This document shows, in pieces, positions 10,092-52,552 of a stretch of DNA of 64,000 nt. Location: the UHGV virus genome UHGV-0179428, one strand, 5' to 3'. Position 1 is the first letter of the stretch. Every line of letters starts with the position of its first letter. The notes beneath the pieces are model-generated. The model was not told where the DNA came from and did not search any database. It was given only the letters and a program-made list of their open reading frames with translations. The stretch comes from a virus. Both the position numbers and the translations under genes were made by a program.

Positions 10092-10553
10092 TTATTTGTT
10101 AGGACGGGTGTGTCCACAGTTCTGGAAGAAAGTTTCAGACAGACGTTCGCCTTCTACGGTAAAGTTAGCGGCATCGTTACCATTGATACTCACACTGAAA
10201 GTTTTGGCATTACCGATAGCATTAACGAAAGCAACCCAAGCGTGTTCTGCTTTGTCACTACCGTCCACGGTAGGGATGTTATAGGTTTTGCCGTTTACGA
10301 CAATATCCATCGTGTTATCTTCAGCGTTAGTTGCACCTACGGGTTCACCGTAATACCAGACCATGCGACCGTAAAATTTGCGATTCGCAGTTTCAGTGTC
10401 ACAGTTGATAGACAGTCCGTTTCCGGCGGTGTCTTCAATTTCGTAAACTGCCTGGCCAGGGTTTTGTATTTGTTCCCAGCTGTTGATAGCGGCGTGTGCA
10501 GTATTGAGGCCGAAAGTTAAAATGGTTATTAAGAAAGTGATAAAGGTTTTCAT
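10092..10553 (-). CDS. secreted protein with signal peptide, hypothetical
   Basis: ORF track; N-terminal MKTFITFLITILTFGLNTAHA; AAGGAG RBS. Confidence 0.7.
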   Translation of the reverse strand: MKTFITFLITILTFGLNTAHAAINSWEQIQNPGQAVYEIEDTAGNGLSINCDTETANRKFYGRMVWYYGEPVGATNAEDNTMDIVVNGKTYNIPTVDGSDKAEHAWVAFVNAIGNAKTFSVSINGNDAANFTVEGERLSETFFQNCGHTRPNK

Positions 10554-10599
10554 TGAAATGCTCCTTCGGGTTATGGGGAAATTCCCACAAATTATGAAA

Positions 10600-10971
10600 T
10601 TAAATAACTGTGTTGGGTAATGCTTTAATCTGTGTATAACTATCTCCGATACCTCTTATCATTTCCAGACGCTCTTCTGTAGAAAGGCTTTGGTTAATGT
10701 CTTTGTCAAGATTGAACAGTGTCAAGAGTTTTGCAATTGCAACCGTCAGGTTGTCGGACAGCTCGTTGTTTTTACGCCATTCTTCGTTACGGAAAATAGA
10801 GATAAGGTCTTTCGCCTGGCCTTCAGCGTGTGGTTTGGCTAACTGCGCGTCACGCTGTTCGATAAGGTATGCTTCGTTAGTAAGTAAACGTTTCAGGTTT
10901 TCTGGGTTAGTGGCAGCGCGAGTAACGATCATTAATACAACAAACGGGTCTTTAAATAATTCGTTTTTCAT
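10600..10971 (-). CDS. hypothetical protein
   Basis: ORF track; TTTTAGGAGAACTAAAG-ATG; preceded by conserved promoter-like leader module. Confidence 0.7.
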   Translation of the reverse strand: MKNELFKDPFVVLMIVTRAATNPENLKRLLTNEAYLIEQRDAQLAKPHAEGQAKDLISIFRNEEWRKNNELSDNLTVAIAKLLTLFNLDKDINQSLSTEERLEMIRGIGDSYTQIKALPNTVI

Positions 10972-10979
10972 CTTTAGTT

Positions 10980-11050
10980 CTCCTAAAATGGTTTTAGTTA
11001 AGTGAGTGCTTTTGTACTCTCACCTAAGTAATATATATCTGAAATTATTT
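10980..11050 (-). promoter_or_regulatory. conserved promoter-like motif plus 5' leader hairpin (copy 1)
   Basis: Motif TAAGTAATATATATCTGAAAT (plus strand) next to 11-bp-stem hairpin TTAAGTGAGNG-loop-CTCTCACnTAA and AGGAG RBS; about 80 nt nearly identical to 48075-48150. Confidence 0.5.
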
Positions 11051-11063
11051 TTAATATTAACGA

Positions 11064-11097
11064 ACAAAAAAATAAAAGGTGGGGGTTTACCCCCACC
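11064..11097 (-). terminator. rho-independent terminator
   Basis: GGTGGGGG-ttta-CCCCCACC hairpin then T tract on minus strand. Confidence 0.65.
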
Positions 11098-13714: not shown

Positions 13715-14269
13715 TTAAGCAGGGTAAGCTAAGAACAACAGCTGCTGGCCGATTTTACGTACGGTATACCAACCGTGGGCTTTAGCGACCGCGATCAACG
13801 TTTCCCAGTCGTCAACATCGCACTGTTCATTCCGAAGTCTCGTAAAGAGTGCTTCGGCTTCGCTTTGGTTTAATAACTTACCTGGGTTGTCTGGGGTACA
13901 GTCAGTAGGGGTTGGAAAGAAAGCATACTGACGCGCTAAGAGAAAATCGACCAGATACTTGGTGTTCTCTTTATAAACCAGCGTGGAAGTCTTCCCTTCG
14001 TGGAAGAAGCTGCCTGTTTTCCAAACGCTATCTTTCAGTAGGCTTTGAAAGTAATCTGTAAAACCCGTTCTAAACGGGATATGGGCTTTACGTGTGATGT
14101 TGCGACGCAGTGGGGTTTCCTCCACAGCTTGTACACTTACCCCTACTATCATCGCACCTGGCTGAATAATGGTATTGGTCAGTACGGTATAAGGACGGAC
14201 AAAGAAATGTTCGCCTACGCCCTTTTCAAGGGTTTGGATAATTTCATTTTTCAGTTCAGTTTGAAACAT
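13715..14269 (-). CDS. hypothetical protein, member of C-terminal GW..QLLF module family
   Basis: ORF track; AAAAGGAGAATATACC-ATG; C-terminus AHGWYTVRKIGQQLLFLA. Confidence 0.75.
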   Translation of the reverse strand: MFQTELKNEIIQTLEKGVGEHFFVRPYTVLTNTIIQPGAMIVGVSVQAVEETPLRRNITRKAHIPFRTGFTDYFQSLLKDSVWKTGSFFHEGKTSTLVYKENTKYLVDFLLARQYAFFPTPTDCTPDNPGKLLNQSEAEALFTRLRNEQCDVDDWETLIAVAKAHGWYTVRKIGQQLLFLAYPA

Positions 14270-14298
14270 GGTATATTCTCCTTTTTCGGTTTTCTTAA

Positions 14299-15036
14299 TT
14301 ACGCGGTTTTAATTAACAGCAGATAGTCCTTCGTAATCTCAGCACAACCCCACCCTCTCATCGCGGCGATTTTACGAAGATCAATTTTCTCGTGATATTT
14401 CAATAAGGGATCATCTGAGTTAATCTCAACCAGGTGGGTGGCTTTAGAAATCGTTTCTACATCAGGGATCTGTTTTGCTAAGTCTGATGCAATTAACTCG
14501 ATGATACGGTATCCCTCTAACACAGAAACATAAATGCGTAAACCATATAGCGTGCCCTCGTCTTCTAATGGACAAAGATCGATGCCGGGTCCAAGCAGTG
14601 ATAACTCGACGTTATCGGGAAGGTTTTCCGCATTTCGGAGTAACCCTATCCCATTTCTAAACAGAGGGAAGTAAGAGAATAGTGGTGGTAAAGCCCAACC
14701 GTTCCCAATAAGCACATCGGCGATACTAGTAGGTGTGTTCGCAAGGAGACGAATGTGGTCAGCCACAACTTCAAGTTCGGCGTCACTGATCAACTTATAG
14801 ATTAACATGACACTGGTTTCGGTATTAATAACAAAGAAGACGCGGTTGGCGTAACTGCCTATCACGTATTCGTCAATCATACAGTCGATAACGTCACTGT
14901 CTGGATAATCTTCAGGTTTAATTGTTCCAGCATCGATTAACTTAGCAGGTTGCGATTGTTTTATTAGTTCGTTAACCACCGTAGAAGAAAGTTCTAAACT
15001 GGTGTTGGTAAAGATATCGTCTAGTAATTCTCTCAT
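14299..15036 (-). CDS. hypothetical protein (degenerate C-terminal GW module)
   Basis: ORF track; weak RBS; C-terminus MRGWGCAEITKDYLLLIKTA. Confidence 0.6.
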   Translation of the reverse strand: MRELLDDIFTNTSLELSSTVVNELIKQSQPAKLIDAGTIKPEDYPDSDVIDCMIDEYVIGSYANRVFFVINTETSVMLIYKLISDAELEVVADHIRLLANTPTSIADVLIGNGWALPPLFSYFPLFRNGIGLLRNAENLPDNVELSLLGPGIDLCPLEDEGTLYGLRIYVSVLEGYRIIELIASDLAKQIPDVETISKATHLVEINSDDPLLKYHEKIDLRKIAAMRGWGCAEITKDYLLLIKTA

Positions 15037-15278
15037 GATTTACTCGCTAATCCCAAAGAAGGGAAGGCTATTATTATGGATTGTAAAGGAGGTATAAGGA
15101 AGTCACTACGTTCCTCTGGGAAGAGTATGTCGGTATACTCCGTATACCTCCGCTATTTATATCCGTATACATAATGCCCCCTACCCCCTACCGGTATCCC
15201 GAGTAGCAGAATAAAGGGTCATAATGTAATTTTTTAGTAACCTTTAACGAAAGGTACTAAAAGGGTAACGTGTCCGTA

Positions 15279-15332
15279 GGGACTGAAGTACCAGTTCAGT
15301 CCCTATTCACTTAAGTAAAATATATCTGAAAT
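15279..15332 (-). promoter_or_regulatory. conserved promoter-like motif plus hairpin (copy 4) in divergent intergenic region
   Basis: GGGACTGAA-gtacca-TTCAGTCCC hairpin followed by CACTTAAGTAAAATATATCTGAAAT. Confidence 0.4.
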
Positions 15333-15357
15333 CAATTCCGATCTAAGGAACGTCCCG

Positions 15358-16323
15358 ATGGAGAAATCCAGTGTTGATTTTTTCTCAATTGGTATCGTCG
15401 CGGAAGACAAACCCCGTGGTACAGATCGGGTAAAAGTGATACCAATTGAAACCAACTTTGCTAACCCTACCGTGGTGCAATCTGTTTCTTCAGCAACTGA
15501 AAAGACGCATGAAACATCCGGTGCAACAGATAACCTAACCATTAAGACGGGAAACACGATAACAGCAAAGTGGTGGAAGTTTAACTCCAACCGAATTAAT
15601 TCCCCTGACGTTAAACGAGAAGACTACGTTATCTTGTTACGTTTGGGGAAAACCGATATTTATTTTTGGATTGATCTGAACTTCGCTAACGTTAAGCGAT
15701 TAGAAGATGCGGTTTATGCGTGGTCGGCTGACCCTGAAAACCAAATGGCGGATGACTTGTCCAATGCGTATGTGTTGAACGTTTCGACGATTGACAAACA
15801 TATCACGCTAAGAACGAGTATGGTGAATGGCGAGAAAGCGGCGTGGTTGTTTCAGTTTGATAATGCAAACGGTACGTGGCAGTGCGTTGACCATAAAGGA
15901 AACAAGTATTACATTAACTCGGTTGAAGATGATCTCGGGTTTGAGAATGCGATGCTTTCAAAAGTGAACATCAACAAAGAAGATGCGTTCATTTATTCAA
16001 AGCGTTCTATTAACCTGGAAACGAAAACGATTAATGAAAAATGCGAAGTCCGCAATACGGAAGCAGCGAGTTCCGTTACGTTTAAAACACAAACCTGGTT
16101 AACAGAAGCGGGCAGTTCGACAACGTTTAAAACGCCGAACTTTAAACAGGAAGGGAAGGAAGCGATGTTCACCGGTAATTTGGAAGTCGCTAAGAACTTC
16201 AAATACGGTGGTACGGGTGAGGGTGTGGGTGTCTTTACGGTTAAAGATGCCATTATTTCCGGTATTACCTTTAGCGTTCACATTCACCAAGGTAAACATG
16301 GCCCGACATCACCTCCGCAATAA
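15358..16323 (+). CDS. putative baseplate central spike / beta-helical fibre protein with C-terminal HxH apex
   Basis: ORF track; AAGGAACG RBS; C-terminal beta-strand-like repeats ending in SVHIHQGKHG, reminiscent of metal-binding spike tips. Confidence 0.35.
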   Translation: MEKSSVDFFSIGIVAEDKPRGTDRVKVIPIETNFANPTVVQSVSSATEKTHETSGATDNLTIKTGNTITAKWWKFNSNRINSPDVKREDYVILLRLGKTDIYFWIDLNFANVKRLEDAVYAWSADPENQMADDLSNAYVLNVSTIDKHITLRTSMVNGEKAAWLFQFDNANGTWQCVDHKGNKYYINSVEDDLGFENAMLSKVNINKEDAFIYSKRSINLETKTINEKCEVRNTEAASSVTFKTQTWLTEAGSSTTFKTPNFKQEGKEAMFTGNLEVAKNFKYGGTGEGVGVFTVKDAIISGITFSVHIHQGKHGPTSPPQ

Positions 16324-33160: not shown

Positions 33161-33227
33161 CTTTATTACAGGAGGAACTATGCTTATGGGCGTAGTCCTC
33201 CATTCTTTTTTATTTTAAGGATACGTG

Positions 33228-33623
33228 ATGGCGATCAGTGTTAAAAATGTACGTGACCGAATCACCAACGTAGAGAACCAAATGGCAACTGGCCCACGTG
33301 TTGATCCGCAAGTTGCGTCGAAAGCACATAATGCCGCCGACACTTTTTCGGGTTGGACGCCAAGTCGGTTAGACTGCGGGGGGAGTTGCAGCTGGACGTG
33401 CTCAAACGGTTGTACGCATGGCTGTACGAGTTGTTCGGGCACCTGTACGTCAGTGTGTGTAGGTAGCTGCTCCTCTGCGTGCGGTAACCAGTGTACTGGA
33501 TGTAGTTCAACGTGTTCCGGTGGCTGCTCAGGTTGCAGTGGGACCTGTGGGGGTGCTTGCTCGGGCCGTTGTTCTACGGGTTGTTCTGGTGCTTGCTCTG
33601 GTGGCTGTTCTGGCCCAACCTAA
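33228..33623 (+). CDS. Cys-rich (C-x3-C)n protein 1, candidate rSAM substrate / precursor
   Basis: ORF track 33225-33623; ATG at 33228 after AAGGA; about 60-aa N-terminal region then about 70 aa of C-x3-C repeats with S/G/T spacers starting at LDCGGSCSWTCS. Confidence 0.75.
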   Translation: MAISVKNVRDRITNVENQMATGPRVDPQVASKAHNAADTFSGWTPSRLDCGGSCSWTCSNGCTHGCTSCSGTCTSVCVGSCSSACGNQCTGCSSTCSGGCSGCSGTCGGACSGRCSTGCSGACSGGCSGPT

Positions 33624-34030
33624 GAGGTGAAAAATGGCAATTGGATTACCTGCGCTACAAGCGCGGCTAAATAACATTGACAACACTGCATTGAAGAATA
33701 CGGGTGCAGTACAAAACTATATTCGTGGGAAAGCGACGAACAACGCAGACTTATTCGGTGGGCAAGCTCGCAACCACTATGACTGTGGTGGGAGCTGTAG
33801 CTGGACCTGTTCGAGCTGTTCTGGTGGTTGTACAGGGAACGCATCAGGCGGCTGTGGTTCTTCCTGTTCTGCAAACTGTGTATCAGGTTGTAGTGCAGGC
33901 TGTAGTGGATGTTCGAATACCTGTTCTGGTGGCTGTTCAGGAAGCTGTACGGGGAGTTGTTCTAACTCGTGTGTAGGAAACTGTTCTGCAGGCTGCTCAG
34001 GTAGTTGTTCTGGTGGGTGTTCTGGGAGGT
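33390..34030 (+). repeat. low-complexity TGY/AGC/GGN codon repeats encoding (C-x3-C)n
   Basis: Visible periodic Cys codons every fourth codon across two adjacent genes. Confidence 0.7.
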
Positions 34031-34032
34031 AA
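33634..34032 (+). CDS. Cys-rich (C-x3-C)n protein 2, candidate rSAM substrate / precursor
   Basis: ORF track; AAGAGGTGAAAA-ATG; same architecture, core begins YDCGGSCSWTCSS. Confidence 0.75.
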   Translation: MAIGLPALQARLNNIDNTALKNTGAVQNYIRGKATNNADLFGGQARNHYDCGGSCSWTCSSCSGGCTGNASGGCGSSCSANCVSGCSAGCSGCSNTCSGGCSGSCTGSCSNSCVGNCSAGCSGSCSGGCSGR

Positions 34033-35299: not shown

Positions 35300-36223
35300 A
35301 TGACAACCAATGCAGAACCAAGGTTATCGAATCGTTTATACGATAAACCCACCGTATTGTCCGTAGTCGCTACGTCCAAGTGTAACCTGGATTGTAGCTT
35401 CTGCGGTGGAGCCTATTACATGAATCGTGAAGATTCTCCGCGAGAGTTTCAACGTGAGCGAATTTTGGAAGCGCTGGAAGCTAATCCAACCATTACCGAA
35501 ATTCAGTGGACGGGTGGTGAGCCATTACTGGCAACCCGTAAAATTGAGGCGTTTGTTGACGAATTAAAAGTGATTCGTCCAGAACTCAAACACCAGTTGT
35601 ATACCAATGGCTTAAAGATGCGTAAATCGCATCTCCCGTTGCTAAAACAGTTTGACAATGTCTACGTTAGCATCGATGGGTTTAAGTCGTCTGAGCGCCC
35701 GTTTATGCGCTTTATTGACGAAGGCTGTTACGAAGCACTGGAAACGATCTACGAGCTGGATAATGTCCAGACTTGGGGTGTCCTGACACGGGACCGTTTA
35801 GGGGACAAACGCTGGCACGAAGATATTATTCAGCTGCACAGCGCGATTTACCATTACGGTTTCCGTGCAATGACGTTACTCTTAGATGCGAAAATGCCAA
35901 AACCTTTATCGCCTGACCACGTCATGAACTTTATTTACGGCTACTATCAGGTTCAGGACAACATTGAACGGCTGAATGTAGTAAATAGTCGTGAATGCGG
36001 CTTTACGGTAAGTAAAGTGTTTGAAGAAGGGTGTAACGTTTGCAGCGAAAGTCTTTGGATTAATGCAGACGGTGGTGAGCACCAACTCCAGAATGCACCT
36101 AACGTTCTGGAATCGGGATGTAACCAACTGGCCTTCTCTATCGGTGTAGAGGCGTACGAATATATTCGTCGTGTGGTGATGGCAGGGCGTAATAGAGGGG
36201 CGGCAAATGAGTCAAGTAAATGA
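35300..36223 (+). CDS. radical SAM enzyme 1
   Basis: ORF track; CNLDCSFC (C-x3-C-x2-C) near N-terminus, GGEPLL SAM-binding motif, additional C-terminal Cys cluster. Confidence 0.8.
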   Translation: MTTNAEPRLSNRLYDKPTVLSVVATSKCNLDCSFCGGAYYMNREDSPREFQRERILEALEANPTITEIQWTGGEPLLATRKIEAFVDELKVIRPELKHQLYTNGLKMRKSHLPLLKQFDNVYVSIDGFKSSERPFMRFIDEGCYEALETIYELDNVQTWGVLTRDRLGDKRWHEDIIQLHSAIYHYGFRAMTLLLDAKMPKPLSPDHVMNFIYGYYQVQDNIERLNVVNSRECGFTVSKVFEEGCNVCSESLWINADGGEHQLQNAPNVLESGCNQLAFSIGVEAYEYIRRVVMAGRNRGAANESSK

Positions 36224-37529
36224 ATTCCCTAAGCAGTTAACGTATCAGATCGTAACCAACCTTTCGTGTAACCTGGACTGCGAATATTGTTACGAACGTA
36301 AGTACCCGCGTAACAACAAAGCGGCTGACATTGTTGATTTCTTACACGCCTGTTTTGAACGTGATAAAAACGAACCGAATGTTGAAGTTATTATCGACAT
36401 TATCGGTGGTGAACCGTTCATGCAGCCTAAACTGCTGTTGGCTGCGTTTGAAACCGCTGAGCAGTTGTGTAAAGAACACAACCGACCGTTTATGTTTAGT
36501 ATCTCCACGAACGGAACGCTGTTAGATCGTCCGTTGAACCGTGAGATTGTAGAACGTTGGAAAGATAAACTTTCGGTTGGGGTTTCGATTGATGGCTTAC
36601 CTGAATCCCATGACCGTTATCGTATCTTCACAACAACACGCCAGGGTTCTTACGAAGCCGCAGTACGTGGCTATAACTACTTAAAAGAGGTTGGCATTGC
36701 AGAGCTCGGCGTAAAAGCAACCTTTACGTTAGAAACGCTGCCGTTCTATGCTGCGGGGATGAAGTCATTAATTGACATTACTGGCGGTGGGACAATTTCT
36801 GGAAACGTAACTTTCGAAGACGTTATGCCACGTAGCATGGCGACGTCAATCGCTTTACAGATGATGGATGTGATAGATTACTGGGTTGAGAAAGGATTAC
36901 ACACCAACCCACGTAATATCCTATCGCATATCATTCCAGAAGGGTTGGATTTCGACACGATTTGGGAACCGAACTGGCGTGACCAGTTACTGTATAATGA
37001 CACCGTACGGTTGAACCCGGAACGCTTACGTCCGTTCTGTGGGACGTTAACGCACATGACGTGCTTAGGGTTTGACCGTAAGATCTTTGGCTGTAACCGC
37101 TTTATGTCAACGGTAACGTCGCGTTCTGCGGTGTTTGAGTTGGTAGGTCGGGAATTCGTCAGTCTGGACAACGGTAAATTGTTAGAAGAGATTCAAACGC
37201 AATATACCAACTACCCAGAGACCTGTTTAGGTTGTCCGATGAAACACGCTTGTGGTAGCTGCGCAGCGGCTTCTTACGAGAACGGGGAAGGAACGTTAGA
37301 AGACCGTAAAGCGTATCACGCTGAACGACGTCAGTGTGGCTGGACGACAGCGAAACTGATGGTGGCGGAATACTGGAAACAGAAGATGGGTACGACGTCA
37401 GCAAAAGCGTTCCACGACACGAGTATGTGTTATTGCCCACGCTGTGTTCGTGAACGTGCCCAAAAGGAAAAATTATTAAGAGAAGCCAAAGATGAAACCA
37501 ATTCTGATCAACAATATTACGAAGCGTAG
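36207..37529 (+). CDS. radical SAM enzyme 2 with SPASM-like C-terminal Cys-rich domain
   Basis: ORF track; CNLDCEYC, GGEPF, C-terminal CLGCPMKHACGSC plus further Cys including CYCPRC; 17-nt overlap with upstream rSAM gene. Confidence 0.8.
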   Translation: MSQVNEFPKQLTYQIVTNLSCNLDCEYCYERKYPRNNKAADIVDFLHACFERDKNEPNVEVIIDIIGGEPFMQPKLLLAAFETAEQLCKEHNRPFMFSISTNGTLLDRPLNREIVERWKDKLSVGVSIDGLPESHDRYRIFTTTRQGSYEAAVRGYNYLKEVGIAELGVKATFTLETLPFYAAGMKSLIDITGGGTISGNVTFEDVMPRSMATSIALQMMDVIDYWVEKGLHTNPRNILSHIIPEGLDFDTIWEPNWRDQLLYNDTVRLNPERLRPFCGTLTHMTCLGFDRKIFGCNRFMSTVTSRSAVFELVGREFVSLDNGKLLEEIQTQYTNYPETCLGCPMKHACGSCAAASYENGEGTLEDRKAYHAERRQCGWTTAKLMVAEYWKQKMGTTSAKAFHDTSMCYCPRCVRERAQKEKLLREAKDETNSDQQYYEA

Positions 37530-47574: not shown

Positions 47575-48069
47575 TTAGAGATGTTTTCCGATAACTTCCG
47601 AAACTAATTCGTAAAGGTCATCGTCACTGCACAAGTCTACACTAATCCCAATGTCGATGCTACGGCTGCGGAATCCCACTTTCACCACTTTACCGAGTTC
47701 GGTTTGTAGGGCTTTATAGAGTCTATTCTTATCTTCTTCAGTGAGAGGAACGGGTAGCCTAACGGTGAACTTGTAATGTTCTTTCGAAACAAGCTCGTTG
47801 GAATAATTAAGTCGTTTGGCTACTTGCGTTCCGACAATCTGTGTTACCAGCTTAAACATTTCTTCGTCACTATACGGTGTTGCGCCATAACCGATATCAA
47901 TAGAATTTCTACGGAAACCTGCGCAGAACAAAGCACCGAACTGCTCACGGAATTCTTTGTGTAGAATATCTTTTTCTACATCCAACAACCCGTAACCCAA
48001 GTCAACAGTGAATTTGTATTTTTCTTTGTCAACTAATTCGTTAGTGTAATCAAGTCTAGTGAAGTTCAT
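47575..48069 (-). CDS. hypothetical protein with internal tandem duplication
   Basis: ORF track; two about 80-aa repeats (NELVxKExYKFTV...GFRxxSIDIG...DxxLxxLV); preceded by conserved leader module. Confidence 0.7.
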   Translation of the reverse strand: MNFTRLDYTNELVDKEKYKFTVDLGYGLLDVEKDILHKEFREQFGALFCAGFRRNSIDIGYGATPYSDEEMFKLVTQIVGTQVAKRLNYSNELVSKEHYKFTVRLPVPLTEEDKNRLYKALQTELGKVVKVGFRSRSIDIGISVDLCSDDDLYELVSEVIGKHL

Positions 48070-48074
48070 GGTAT

Positions 48075-48150
48075 ATTCTCCTAAAATGGTTTTCGTTAAG
48101 TGAGAGCTTTTGTACTCTCACTTAAGTAATATATATCTGAAATTATTTTT
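48075..48150 (-). promoter_or_regulatory. conserved promoter-like motif plus 5' leader hairpin (copy 2)
   Basis: Near-identical copy of the 10980-11050 block upstream of an unrelated gene. Confidence 0.5.
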
Positions 48151-48151
48151 A

Positions 48152-48433
48152 TTAAAAACCCGCAATAAAACTGCCTAGCGAGACACGCTGTAGGTATTTT
48201 GGCTTGCGAGCCAGGTAACAGTTCTTAGGATCACCTATTGCCATCTGCGCAACTGCACGTTCTAAACGCGGTGCTTCTAAGATGGCGCGATAGTTCCCTT
48301 CGTAATGCATTAACCACGCACATTCTTCAACGAAACGTTTTGCTTCTCGGTATTCTAATGTACGGATTAACTTCTTACCCCGGTACTGTTTTACATCACC
48401 GTTTTGACAAAATACAATAGTTTCACGCTTCAT
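48152..48433 (-). CDS. hypothetical protein
   Basis: ORF track. Confidence 0.55.
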   Translation of the reverse strand: MKRETIVFCQNGDVKQYRGKKLIRTLEYREAKRFVEECAWLMHYEGNYRAILEAPRLERAVAQMAIGDPKNCYLARKPKYLQRVSLGSFIAGF

Positions 48434-51146: not shown

Positions 51147-51590
51147 TTAAATCATACCTGGGAATTCGAAATCGATTTTATCTAAAAGTTTGTAGTCTTC
51201 TTTTAGCTGAAGCATTAGCGTATTCTTAAACAGTTCAAGCGAACCGATAAAGTAAGCCGTATAGCAGCTACCAAGAACAGAAGAGGAAAGACCCAAGTCT
51301 CTTAAACATTGTTTCAAGATTTCATGTTCTTCAGCGGTACCGAAAAGTTGGAAATTGATAACGGTAATCTGTTTATTAATGATTGCCGATAACCATTCTT
51401 TAATTCTTCTCGTGGTTATACGTTCTTTGAAATCACTAGCTTCTGGCAACCAGGTAATGTGAACGAACGGTGCATCGTAATCCACGAGAACTTTCTGCTG
51501 CCAACGTACTTGCATCAAACCACGAATACGGTTTGCTAACGTTTCAGAATCACAAAGCAACATAATGCCATTAGTAGTATTTGGTTTCAT
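51147..51590 (-). CDS. hypothetical protein
   Basis: ORF track; AAGGAAGGG RBS; ATGA overlap with upstream gene. Confidence 0.7.
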   Translation of the reverse strand: MKPNTTNGIMLLCDSETLANRIRGLMQVRWQQKVLVDYDAPFVHITWLPEASDFKERITTRRIKEWLSAIINKQITVINFQLFGTAEEHEILKQCLRDLGLSSSVLGSCYTAYFIGSLELFKNTLMLQLKEDYKLLDKIDFEFPGMI

Positions 51591-52438
51591 AATTGCCCTT
51601 CCTTCTTAATGTAATCTTCAACCAACTTATCAAACACGATTTTTATCTTCTCGCGTTCTTTTTCACCCAATTCACCGGAACAGGTTAGTCCATTTATCTT
51701 TCCGTACCGTAATTCCAACACATATTTCAACCGATGACGTAAGGCTTGTTCAAAATGTGTCGGGATATAGATCGGTTCGAAGTTGTGCAATAAAGTAAAA
51801 TTGTCTTCGGTGTGTTTAGGGGGTTCGAATTTTACTCTATCTAAGATAGTAAGCCAGCGTTGTCTGTCGACTAGCCGATCGTCCCAATAAACAGGTTTTG
51901 TTTTAGAGGGGGTAAGTGTATTGTAGTTACTGGAATCGGAGATACGGAAATTTGCTGTGACGTAAGTCTTCGTGAGTAACGAGAGAAGACAAATCGTTCC
52001 TTCTTCGGAGTAACTTAAACCCTCGTCGAGTACGTCTTTAGCTTTCTTGAAGTAGTCTTCAATATAGTCTTCAGCAATTGGTTGAATCTCTACTTCTATA
52101 GCGCTAATTTGGGGCCCGTCTATCCGTAAAGGAAATTTTAGTTCAGCAATATATTGCCTATCCGATGTATAAGCGCGTGTAATAATAGGGTAAGTAACAG
52201 GCTTAGCCAAATGACGATATTCACCAACCCTAATGACTGCGGAACGTCCAAAGTCACCTTTATTCGATTTTGAAAAACCGTAAAGGTCTTTTAGATACTC
52301 CAAATACTGGTCATCAGTCATTTCGTCGGTATTAAATTCACGAATGTAAAGTCGATTAAAAGATCCCTTTGTTTGTTCGTAGTAATAACCGGGGTCCCTA
52401 TTTGCTAGAATGTGCGGGAGATAATACGGGTGATACAT
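51587..52438 (-). CDS. hypothetical protein
   Basis: ORF track; CCTAAAGGAGGATTAG-ATG; preceded by promoter-like motif. Confidence 0.75.
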   Translation of the reverse strand: MYHPYYLPHILANRDPGYYYEQTKGSFNRLYIREFNTDEMTDDQYLEYLKDLYGFSKSNKGDFGRSAVIRVGEYRHLAKPVTYPIITRAYTSDRQYIAELKFPLRIDGPQISAIEVEIQPIAEDYIEDYFKKAKDVLDEGLSYSEEGTICLLSLLTKTYVTANFRISDSSNYNTLTPSKTKPVYWDDRLVDRQRWLTILDRVKFEPPKHTEDNFTLLHNFEPIYIPTHFEQALRHRLKYVLELRYGKINGLTCSGELGEKEREKIKIVFDKLVEDYIKKEGQL

Positions 52439-52461: not shown

Positions 52462-52512
52462 TAATGGAGTGAACGTAAATTTCACTCTCCCCTAGGTAAT
52501 ATATATCTGAGA
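52462..52512 (-). promoter_or_regulatory. conserved promoter-like motif plus hairpin (copy 3)
   Basis: CCTAGGTAATATATATCTGAG with adjacent GAGTGAA...TTCACTC hairpin upstream of 51587-52438. Confidence 0.4.
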
Positions 52513-52552
52513 AAAAATAAAAAAGGTAGTAGGGGCTAAGCCCCTACTACCT
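52512..52552 (-). terminator. rho-independent terminator (strong 12-bp stem)
   Basis: GGTAGTAGGGGC-taa-GCCCCTACTACC hairpin flanked by A/T runs. Confidence 0.7.

Follow-up and report, generated by a model that had tools for sequence, protein, structure and literature searches.

A near-identical promoter, hairpin and RBS leader before two unrelated genes in a jumbo phage of the SPN3US/phiEaH2 clade

The window, the whole stretch of 64,000 nucleotides analysed here, carried two near-identical leaders on its minus strand, 37 kb apart, which are referred to below as copy A (11.0 kb) and copy B (48.1 kb). Positions 11049..10978 and 48147..48076 were identical at 69 of 72 bases (3 differences), a match that appeared in 0 of 100 dinucleotide-preserving shuffles; an independent repeat search returned an ungapped direct repeat of 106 nt with 86% identity (10967-11072 vs 48065-48170). 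Each copy was composed of three parts, namely a promoter block, a 9-12-bp hairpin, and an unstructured spacer with AGGAG placed 8 nt before the ATG. Both the near-identity over about 80 nt at two loci and the arrangement of hairpin, motif and RBS had been pointed out in the preliminary description, and both were borne out by the folded stem, the promoter block and the AGGAG found in each copy. On the left, the similarity ended in an A-rich stretch upstream of the promoter core, where a 3-nt indel separated the copies (TTAATA[TTA]AAAATAATTTCAG). On the right, 8-9 nt separated the end of the identity, ...TTTTAGGAGAA (also given as ...CCATTTTAGGAGAA), from the start codons; the sequence there was CTAAAGATG in copy A and TATACCATG in copy B. 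Since the identity ended before the ATG, it did not enter coding sequence.

At copy B, all features lay on the minus strand. The promoter block TAAAAATAATTTCAGATATATATTACTTAAGTGAGAG spanned 48115..48151, with its AT-rich core TATATATTAC at 48126-48135. The hairpin occupied 48096..48125 and consisted of the 5′ arm (48115-48125), the loop TACAAAAG (48107-48114) and the 3′ arm (48096-48106); the 5′ arm overlapped the conserved GTGAGAG of the promoter block. The spacer with the RBS followed at 48070..48095, with CCATTTTAGGAGAA at 48076-48089 and AGGAG at 48078-48082, and its last 6 nt (48070-48075) differed from copy A. The gene behind copy B was an ORF of 164 aa at 47575..48069.

Copy A, on the same strand, was preceded by a terminator-like hairpin, GGTGGGGGTAAACCCCCACC (11078-11097), with a T-run (together 11066..11097), located directly upstream of the promoter and kept in relatives. 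The promoter block (11017..11053, core TATATATTAC at 11028-11037) led into a hairpin of the type seen at copy B, hereafter B-type, at 10998..11027. Its 5′ arm was at 11017-11027, the loop TACAAAAG at 11009-11016 and the 3′ arm CACTCACTTAA at 10998-11008, and the stem contained one A·A mismatch. In the spacer (10972..10997), AGGAG was found at 10980-10984 and the identity to copy B ended at 10978, after which CTAAAG resembled the leader of a paralogous gene, P. The ORF behind copy A encoded 123 aa (10600..10971, minus strand; phrog_27024). It was followed by the right-hand junction segment of the inserted cassette (10567..10599, minus strand), in which homology to insert-free relatives resumed at about TAACCC..AGGAGCA.

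Two same-strand copies at such a distance could be accounted for by plain segmental duplication of a gene together with its upstream region. However, the identity was confined to the leader and did not extend into the genes, and the 123-aa and 164-aa proteins, as previously noted, were unrelated (both ORFs present; BLASTP, best E = 2.1); simple gene duplication was rejected on these two grounds. A miniature transposable element would not fit either, as neither terminal inverted repeats nor target-site duplications were found and a count of copies gave two in the closest 225-kb relative and one in most relatives. With at most two copies and no terminal repeats, a transposable element was likewise rejected. 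Duplication of the whole segment, or a miniature element, is in our judgement extremely improbable.

The promoter block, TAAAAATAATTTCAGATATATATTACTTARGTGAGAG, was present in 4 copies in the window, all upstream of minus-strand genes, and in 7-8 copies in SPN3US. The core TATATATTAC lay inside an invariant 16-mer, AGATATATWTTACYTA, which occurred four times on the minus strand (11025-11040, 15312-15327, 48123-48138 and 52493-52508), each time exactly and with no further copy at 1-2 mismatches, where 0.13 would be expected. All four sites were intergenic and directed at minus-strand genes. The third promoter (15307-15328) was followed by its own 11-bp hairpin (15277-15305), the pair spanning 15277..15328 on the minus strand. 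The fourth (52485-52509) was preceded by a strong terminator (52524-52552) and followed by its own hairpin (52467-52487), together 52467..52552 on the minus strand; terminator-like hairpins stood directly before two of the four promoters (11.0 and 52.5 kb). Within about 40 bp, the promoter comprised an A-rich upstream part, the invariant CAGATATATATTAC, and then YTARGTGAGAG. The consensus, GATTAAAAATAATTTCAGATATATATTACTTAGGTGAGAG, in which the positions from CAG to GTGA were nearly invariant, was derived from related contigs, which supplied 83 non-identical instances, some of them orthologous, and 72 of these 83 were used to build a weight matrix. The matrix scored the four window sites at 42-65 bits (copy A 64.6, copy B 62.5) and the best non-site at -9.5. 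In the whole genome of SPN3US, 8 sites exceeded the matrix cut-off, 7 of them strong (40-63 bits) and 1 weak (25 bits), and all eight were located directly upstream of genes on the coding strand. The promoter block of copy B was kept at the orthologous site in every relative examined.

When 2.5 kb around copy B were compared by megablast with 50,697 phage records, only a promoter block of 35-38 nt was matched, in the Erwinia phages phiEaH2 and Stratton and in Salmonella jumbo phages, and no close isolate genome was found among those records. The block was the only DNA-level match to SPN3US/phiEaH2-type genomes, with several copies per genome. A 1394-aa virion protein encoded in the window was 41-50% identical to jumbo-phage proteins from Erwinia, Salmonella (SPN3US, SPFM, SPAsTU) and Serratia. 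The PHROG scan identified the large plus-strand genes as paralogous virion proteins, and its other matches in the window were a baseplate protein, a tail fibre and an SbcC-like protein; a tRNA scan found none. Close relatives at 77-98% DNA identity were contigs of 220-228 kb, which came from IMG/VR, metagenomes, and Salmonella, Enterobacter and E. coli assemblies. Judged by these comparisons, the window comes from a nucleus-forming jumbo phage of the SPN3US/phiEaH2 clade.

PHROG scans found no polymerase gene in the 64-kb window. The annotation of SPN3US, which has the motif in common with the window, contains several RNA polymerase beta-subunit genes, and SPN3US has been listed among the jumbo phages with virion and non-virion multisubunit RNA polymerases (PMC7598289). 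Every polymerase-encoding jumbo phage, according to published work, has an AT-rich motif of ~10 nt before its early operons, ~10 bp ahead of the start site, and this motif was the early promoter of the virion polymerase wherever it was tested (PMC7598289, PMC8244752, PMC11512511). By analogy with phiKZ, 201phi2-1 and AR9, the promoter described here is most likely an early promoter of the phage's own virion-packaged multisubunit RNA polymerase. The competing reading takes the motif for a strong sigma-70 promoter of the host (TTAATA-16-TATATT) that is followed by a conserved leader, as in early promoters of the T4 type. Copy B does match at 9 of 12 positions and the region is AT-rich; however, it is the only one of the four sites to pass a weak consensus, sigma-70-like matches were about as frequent as chance predicts (11 observed and 11.1 expected; 19 observed and 13.3 expected), and the invariant positions CAGATATATATTAC..GTGA do not correspond to the -35 and -10 hexamers. 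Moreover, phiKZ-like phages develop independently of the host RNA polymerase (PMC7598289, PMC13282480). We consider a host promoter very unlikely. One correction thus concerns the promoter, which is most likely of the virion-RNA-polymerase type and not of the host type.

The window promoters share several properties with the early promoters of phiKZ, 201phi2-1, AR9 and phiR1-37. Both have a conserved AT-rich element of ~10 nt just upstream of the start (predicted in our case), have further conserved A/T-rich positions upstream, and can be found by bioinformatics alone (PMC7598289, PMC8244752, PMC11512511). In both, several copies per genome stand upstream of operons of small hypothetical genes. 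The differences are that the sequence CAGATATATATTACYTAGGTGAGAG is specific to the SPN3US/Erwinia-phage clade, that copies are fewer here (7-8 per 240 kb), and that conservation continues for ~12 nt past the AT-rich core, with a hairpin directly after it as the rule. Such a hairpin was not reported in the papers on phiKZ-like promoters PMC7598289, PMC8244752 and PMC11512511. A full-text literature search with the string TATATTAC was uninformative. About 28 early promoters have been reported for phiKZ; compared with this number, 7-8 sites per genome suggest that the motif may mark only a subset of the early units.

The stem of both copies read TTARGTGAGAG / CWCTCACTTAA and enclosed the loop TACAAAAG. 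In RNA structure prediction the 59-nt leader of copy A folded at -13.1 kcal/mol (z = -3.2) and that of copy B, with a 12-bp stem, at -16.6 kcal/mol (z = -5.8). A set of 72 non-redundant promoter instances was compared with dinucleotide shuffles; the first 40 nt after TTAC had a mean of -10.0 kcal/mol (z = -2.8), and the next 40 nt, with the spacer, RBS and start, had -2.6 kcal/mol (z = +0.4) and were less structured than the shuffles (first vs next 40 nt, Wilcoxon p = 2e-12). With two exceptions among 71 instances, the stem began 0-6 nt downstream of TTAC. Its shape varied over the promoter class, with stems of 6-12 bp, loops of 3-12 nt and variable distance from the core. The other two promoters of the window had different hairpins at the same position, and stems differed from promoter to promoter (AGAGTTA/TAACTCT, AGATTA/TAATCT, AGCATTGA/TCAATGCT, GGGACTGAA/TTCAGTCCC). 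Orthologues of the 15.3-kb site showed compensatory changes at three stem pairs, with 100% of cells paired; in the B-type stem, where the promoter consensus dictates the 5′ arm, the changes seen were A/G and one-sided only. Compensatory changes in a stem fit DNA-level and RNA-level roles alike. The promoter class as a whole has a hairpin at this position, and selection for it acts across the class. What is kept is the structure and not the sequence, and it would be located at the 5′ end of the transcript as predicted from the promoter position.

The leader hairpins (10998-11027 and 48096-48125) were not called as intrinsic terminators and are followed by AAC.., with no T-run; without a U-tract they are not terminators. 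Rfam 15 at gathering score gave 0 matches in the whole window, and in E-value mode gave one chance-level match in 14900-15400. At 9-12 bp, the stem is too short for a canonical RNase III site. Selection on an RNA structure, which the preliminary description had offered as one of two explanations, is partly right, as class-wide selection of the hairpin; no sign was seen of an RNase III site or, with a loop that varies freely between lineages, of a sequence-specific operator. Given the position of the hairpin, the conservation of its structure and the biology of enterobacterial mRNA decay, the 5′ hairpin most likely protects early mRNA from 5′-end-dependent decay and leaves the RBS open. Of the stem pairs, the outer 4-5 may be situated upstream of where transcription starts. 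A 5′-terminal stabiliser hairpin in the 5′ UTR of ompA, an enterobacterial mRNA, was reportedly described by Emory, Bouvet and Belasco in 1992. The likeness to ompA-type stabilisers is in the stem-loop at, or within a few nt of, the 5′ end (predicted here) and the accessible RBS that follows, whereas the function here is read from position and structure conservation.

It is also conceivable that the hairpin acts in DNA and not as an RNA element, with the virion polymerase recognising a cruciform or an extruded hairpin as part of the promoter. The virion polymerase of phage N4 uses hairpin promoters, which provides a precedent; there, as proposed here, the polymerase is packaged in the virion and the early promoters contain an inverted repeat. 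In addition, the 5′ arm overlaps the promoter-proximal GTGAGAG, and pairing often reaches the bases directly after TTAC. The N4 hairpins, however, are uniform (5-7-bp stem, 3-nt loop), lie upstream of +1 and are the recognition element, whereas the hairpins here vary in stem, in loop and in how far they stand from the core, and the conserved motif precedes them. N4 has a single-subunit enzyme. The jumbo-phage polymerase is multisubunit and unrelated to it (PMC7598289). A DNA-level role seems to us quite unlikely, and we favour the RNA-level role.

In relatives, the region upstream of the orthologue of the 164-aa gene contained the promoter, the GTGAGAG stem and CCATTTTAGGAG in all genomes examined. 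The loop at copy B varied by lineage (TACAAAAG, TACGAAAG, TTCAGTTA, TTCAGCTA, TTCAGTCA) and the stem was kept. The comparison shows the 48.1-kb copy, present in every genome examined, to be ancestral, as the leader of the 164-aa gene.

Relatives differed at site A, at 11.0 kb, where three configurations were found. The B-type hairpin, spacer and RBS with the 123-aa gene occurred in the window, in its closest relative (IMG/VR 3300029126) and in some others. In four relatives (L029, L010, L047 and L052), the 123-aa gene and the shared leader were absent, and promoter A was followed by a different hairpin, GAGAGTTAAGATTAACTCT, and then by the orthologue of gene 10092-10553. In a further lineage, a B-type leader was followed by a 46%-identical variant of the gene and then by a terminator, without the 153-aa gene. 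The promoter block of copy A is native to the locus, being present also in relatives without the duplicated leader. Recombination breakpoints at the borders of the cassette, as looked for in relatives, were found at 11016 and ~10570 in the four insert-free relatives. The alignment broke at window position 11016, directly after GGTGAGAG, which is the downstream edge of the promoter, and resumed at ~10566-10575, just before the AGGAGCA of gene 10092-10553. Elsewhere in the genome, another early promoter, likewise followed by a hairpin of its own, precedes a paralogue of the 123-aa gene with 57-60% identity. The two coding sequences were 100% identical over the first 44 nt and about 62% over the rest, and the A leader changed from B-like to paralogue-like sequence at the RBS. 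The right-hand junctions showed no long homology, so the founding event would have needed illegitimate or microhomology joining.

Changes at promoter-proximal positions were not limited to site A, as three of the four in the window were polymorphic among close relatives. At the 52.5-kb promoter, the first downstream gene (51587-52438) was missing in relative 078609, with the junction right after the hairpin. At the 15.3-kb promoter, relatives had an extra segment of ~100 nt with an ORF of ~25 codons just after the hairpin, which the window lacked.

The two leaders of one genome resembled each other more than leaders of one locus did across lineages. Copies A and B differed at 3 positions in the window, at 4 in 3300029126 and at 0 in the Salmonella assembly GCA_007525025, whereas the leaders of the two lineage groups differed at 6-11 positions whether the same or different loci were compared. 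In GCA_007525025, both copies shared a lineage-specific loop, TTCAGTCA, and spacer, AACTAAACC; the A gene was only 46% identical to that of the window, and the leaders were identical from the core through AGGAGAAT (~65 nt). Two short-read assemblies of this strain broke exactly inside the leader, as expected of a repeat. L095, a short contig, carried an A copy that matched the B copy of the closely related genome 113438 in loop and spacer and differed from it at 1 position. Most near-complete relatives had the B copy only, and the signal comes from three genomes with both copies and one near-pair, with essentially two leader alleles. Leaders that cluster by genome and not by locus point to gene conversion or repeated copying between the sites, and the pattern indicates that leaders A and B evolve in concert. 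Independent copying from B to A in each lineage would give the same pattern.

A different explanation is that the near-identity was kept purely by purifying selection on a regulatory RNA, a repressor operator or nuclease site that co-regulates both genes. In keeping with this, the stem and CCATTTTAGGAG were invariant in all 15 or more B-type leaders, the B-type leader was limited to two loci, and it was unchanged at site A where the gene had diverged to 46% identity. Between lineages, however, up to 6 of the 8 loop positions changed, as did the length and sequence of the spacer, and these lineage-specific states were shared by the two copies of one genome, whereas a fixed operator predicts one sequence everywhere. 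The genome-specific pairs argue against selection on a fixed operator, as the differing positions are free to vary. Furthermore, the 5′ arm is already set by the promoter consensus, the stem is too short for canonical RNase III, and no Rfam family was matched. We regard purifying selection as the sole cause as unlikely. The other explanation of the preliminary description, a mobile or recombinogenic cassette, proved right as to recombination, considering the insertion absent in 4 relatives, the matching within genomes and the indels at two further promoters, but not as to an autonomous mobile element, with two copies only and neither terminal repeats nor target duplications.

The explanation that we consider probable is that of an early-promoter module of the virion polymerase which was copied between two promoters of the same class and has been kept alike by recombination. 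In the course of events that we infer for the polymerase used, the start site, the early timing, the hairpin protection and the founding insertion, transcription would start ~1-7 nt after TTAC, and the 5′ arm of the hairpin would form the conserved initial transcribed sequence. The transcript would begin with a stem-loop at its extreme 5′ end, followed by an unstructured spacer of ~30 nt with a strong AGGAG. As the comparison with relatives shows, a promoter of this class that already stood at 11.0 kb gained the B-type hairpin, spacer and RBS together with the paralogous 123-aa gene, with recombination junctions at the conserved promoter edge and at RBS sequences; later gene conversion between the two leaders has probably maintained their near-identity. 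The consensus of ~40 bp, common to all such promoters, provides homology and probably makes them hot spots for the gain, loss and swapping of genes.

The closest analogue of this leader is the PeSL of T4-like phages, but the leader is not a PeSL member. PeSLs are cassettes of ~100 bp made of an AT-rich region, an early promoter, a stem-loop and a Shine-Dalgarno sequence (PMC2839356, PMC4122927), and they flank ORFans and mediate insertions, deletions and replacements (PMC2839356, PMC4122927; Arbiol et al. 2010, Comeau et al. 2014). In both systems, a repeated composite cassette stands before small genes of unknown function, and junctions of indels or replacements between close relatives fall in the cassettes, here at 11.0, 15.3 and 52.5 kb, with site A in its three configurations. 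Terminator-promoter composites are also shared, here at 11.0 and 52.5 kb. In contrast to a PeSL, the promoter here does not resemble sigma-70 promoters; the stem-loop follows it in the transcript, has no U-tract and is not a terminator; and the inserted genes are not flanked by two cassettes, their right junction being at the RBS. The phage family is also different.

In SPN3US, a spacer/RBS block of ~27 nt, AATCGACTATTAATCTAAAGGAGTATT, was common to three or four otherwise different leaders, and it recurred in the lineage of the window and in Erwinia phages. From this shared block the leaders look modular, with one promoter, variable hairpins and few spacer types. With confidence slightly short of even, we propose for the SPN3US/Erwinia-phage branch that every early unit of the virion polymerase would consist of the ~40-bp promoter, an obligatory 5′ hairpin and one of a few spacer/RBS blocks, and that these units would be PeSL-like sites of insertion, loss and swapping of early genes, with their copies homogenised by gene conversion. 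In the literature searched on early promoters, stem-loops and recombination of Chimalliviridae and SPN3US, no description of the hairpin or of cassette shuffling was found. If the proposal is true, promoter-coupled cassette shuffling evolved independently under a completely different transcription machinery, and the 5′ hairpin is a hallmark of early jumbo-phage mRNAs that has so far gone undescribed, and one that these mRNAs may need in order to survive or to be handled until the phage nucleus has formed. The regularity of the 5′ hairpin leads to a testable hypothesis, namely that it protects early transcripts made before anti-RNase or compartment defences. The principle, known from T4-like phages, would be extended to a different phage family and promoter type, and nothing would be overturned. 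In practical terms, the promoter, hairpin and RBS module may serve as a compact and portable expression unit for engineering these phages, with the ~40-bp consensus as the obvious place to land insertions.

For most early genes of nucleus-forming jumbo phages no function is known, and their turnover is rapid; exchange sites of this kind help to explain that plasticity. The 123-aa gene belongs to a small early-gene family, phrog_27024, and PHROG and Pfam scans gave no functional clue to its protein. The 164-aa protein had no PHROG or Pfam match; its orthologues, 84-90% identical, were found in phage contigs of ~220 kb, and the protein contains two internal repeats, NELVDKEKYKFTV / NELVSKEHYKFTV.

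The translation-initiation block of copy B, the 48.1-kb member of the two near-identical minus-strand leaders, recurred elsewhere in the window. The sequence GGAGAATATACCATG was found at both 48067–48094 and 14267–14294, where it served a second gene (13715–14269) that is internal to an operon and has no promoter in front of it. The phage appears to employ a few standard versions of ribosome-binding regions. Three or four early leaders of SPN3US (NC_027402.1, positions 65413, 94239, 113986 and 223277; loci L110–L113) likewise had in common a block of ~27 nt, AATCGACTATTAATCTAAAGGAGTATT, located just before the start codon, and the hairpins of these leaders differed from one another. Since AATCGACTATTAATCTAAAGGAGTATT was also found in Erwinia phages and in the lineage of the window, its recurrence suggests a second conserved leader module.

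Over its opening 44 nt (window 10928–10971), the 123-aa gene behind copy A, the leader at 11.0 kb, was 100% identical, synonymous positions included, to a paralogue located elsewhere in the genome (L088, 1501–1544), as compared with ~62% identity over the remainder of the gene. Moreover, every member of this family starts with MKNELFKDPFVVL. These features suggest that the 5′ coding region either is a conversion tract or is constrained at the nucleotide level. No family match was found for the 164-aa protein encoded behind copy B (47575–48069), which is internally duplicated, its halves resembling each other (…NELVDKEKYKFTV… and …NELVSKEHYKFTV…).

Directly behind the fourth early promoter lies a 283-aa gene (51587–52438), which is missing from the relative IMGVR_UViG_3300045988_078609 (L066). 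One junction is at ~52454, just past the promoter hairpin, and the other, at ~51637, precedes the RBS of the next gene. Downstream of the third early promoter, ~270 nt of the minus strand (15036–15300) contained no convincing ORF, and the central ~150 nt (core 15090–15240) showed 94–95% identity in relatives, whereas the flanking genes reached only 83–88%. The segment includes GGTAGGGGGTAGGGGG and the palindrome GGTATACGGAGTATACC; searches of it for Rfam and tRNA matches returned none. The segment may encode a conserved non-coding RNA or act as a regulatory element.

The plus-strand intervals 33225–34032 and 35300–37529 cover a group of genes that includes two tandem paralogues of 132 aa, with C-terminal halves composed almost entirely of Cys/Gly/Ser repeats (…CSGGCSGSCTGSCS…). 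They are followed by one gene of unknown function and two radical-SAM enzyme genes, the latter pair being present also in SPN3US (gp102 and gp103). The group may constitute a radical-SAM-modified cysteine-rich protein system within the virion-gene block.

Contigs of ~220–228 kb belonging to this phage lineage were present in many isolate assemblies (loci L092, L096 and L098, and protein matches) that bear the names Salmonella enterica, Enterobacter ludwigii and E. coli. Their recurrence might reflect a carrier state or pseudolysogeny, or else that phage and hosts are often sequenced together.
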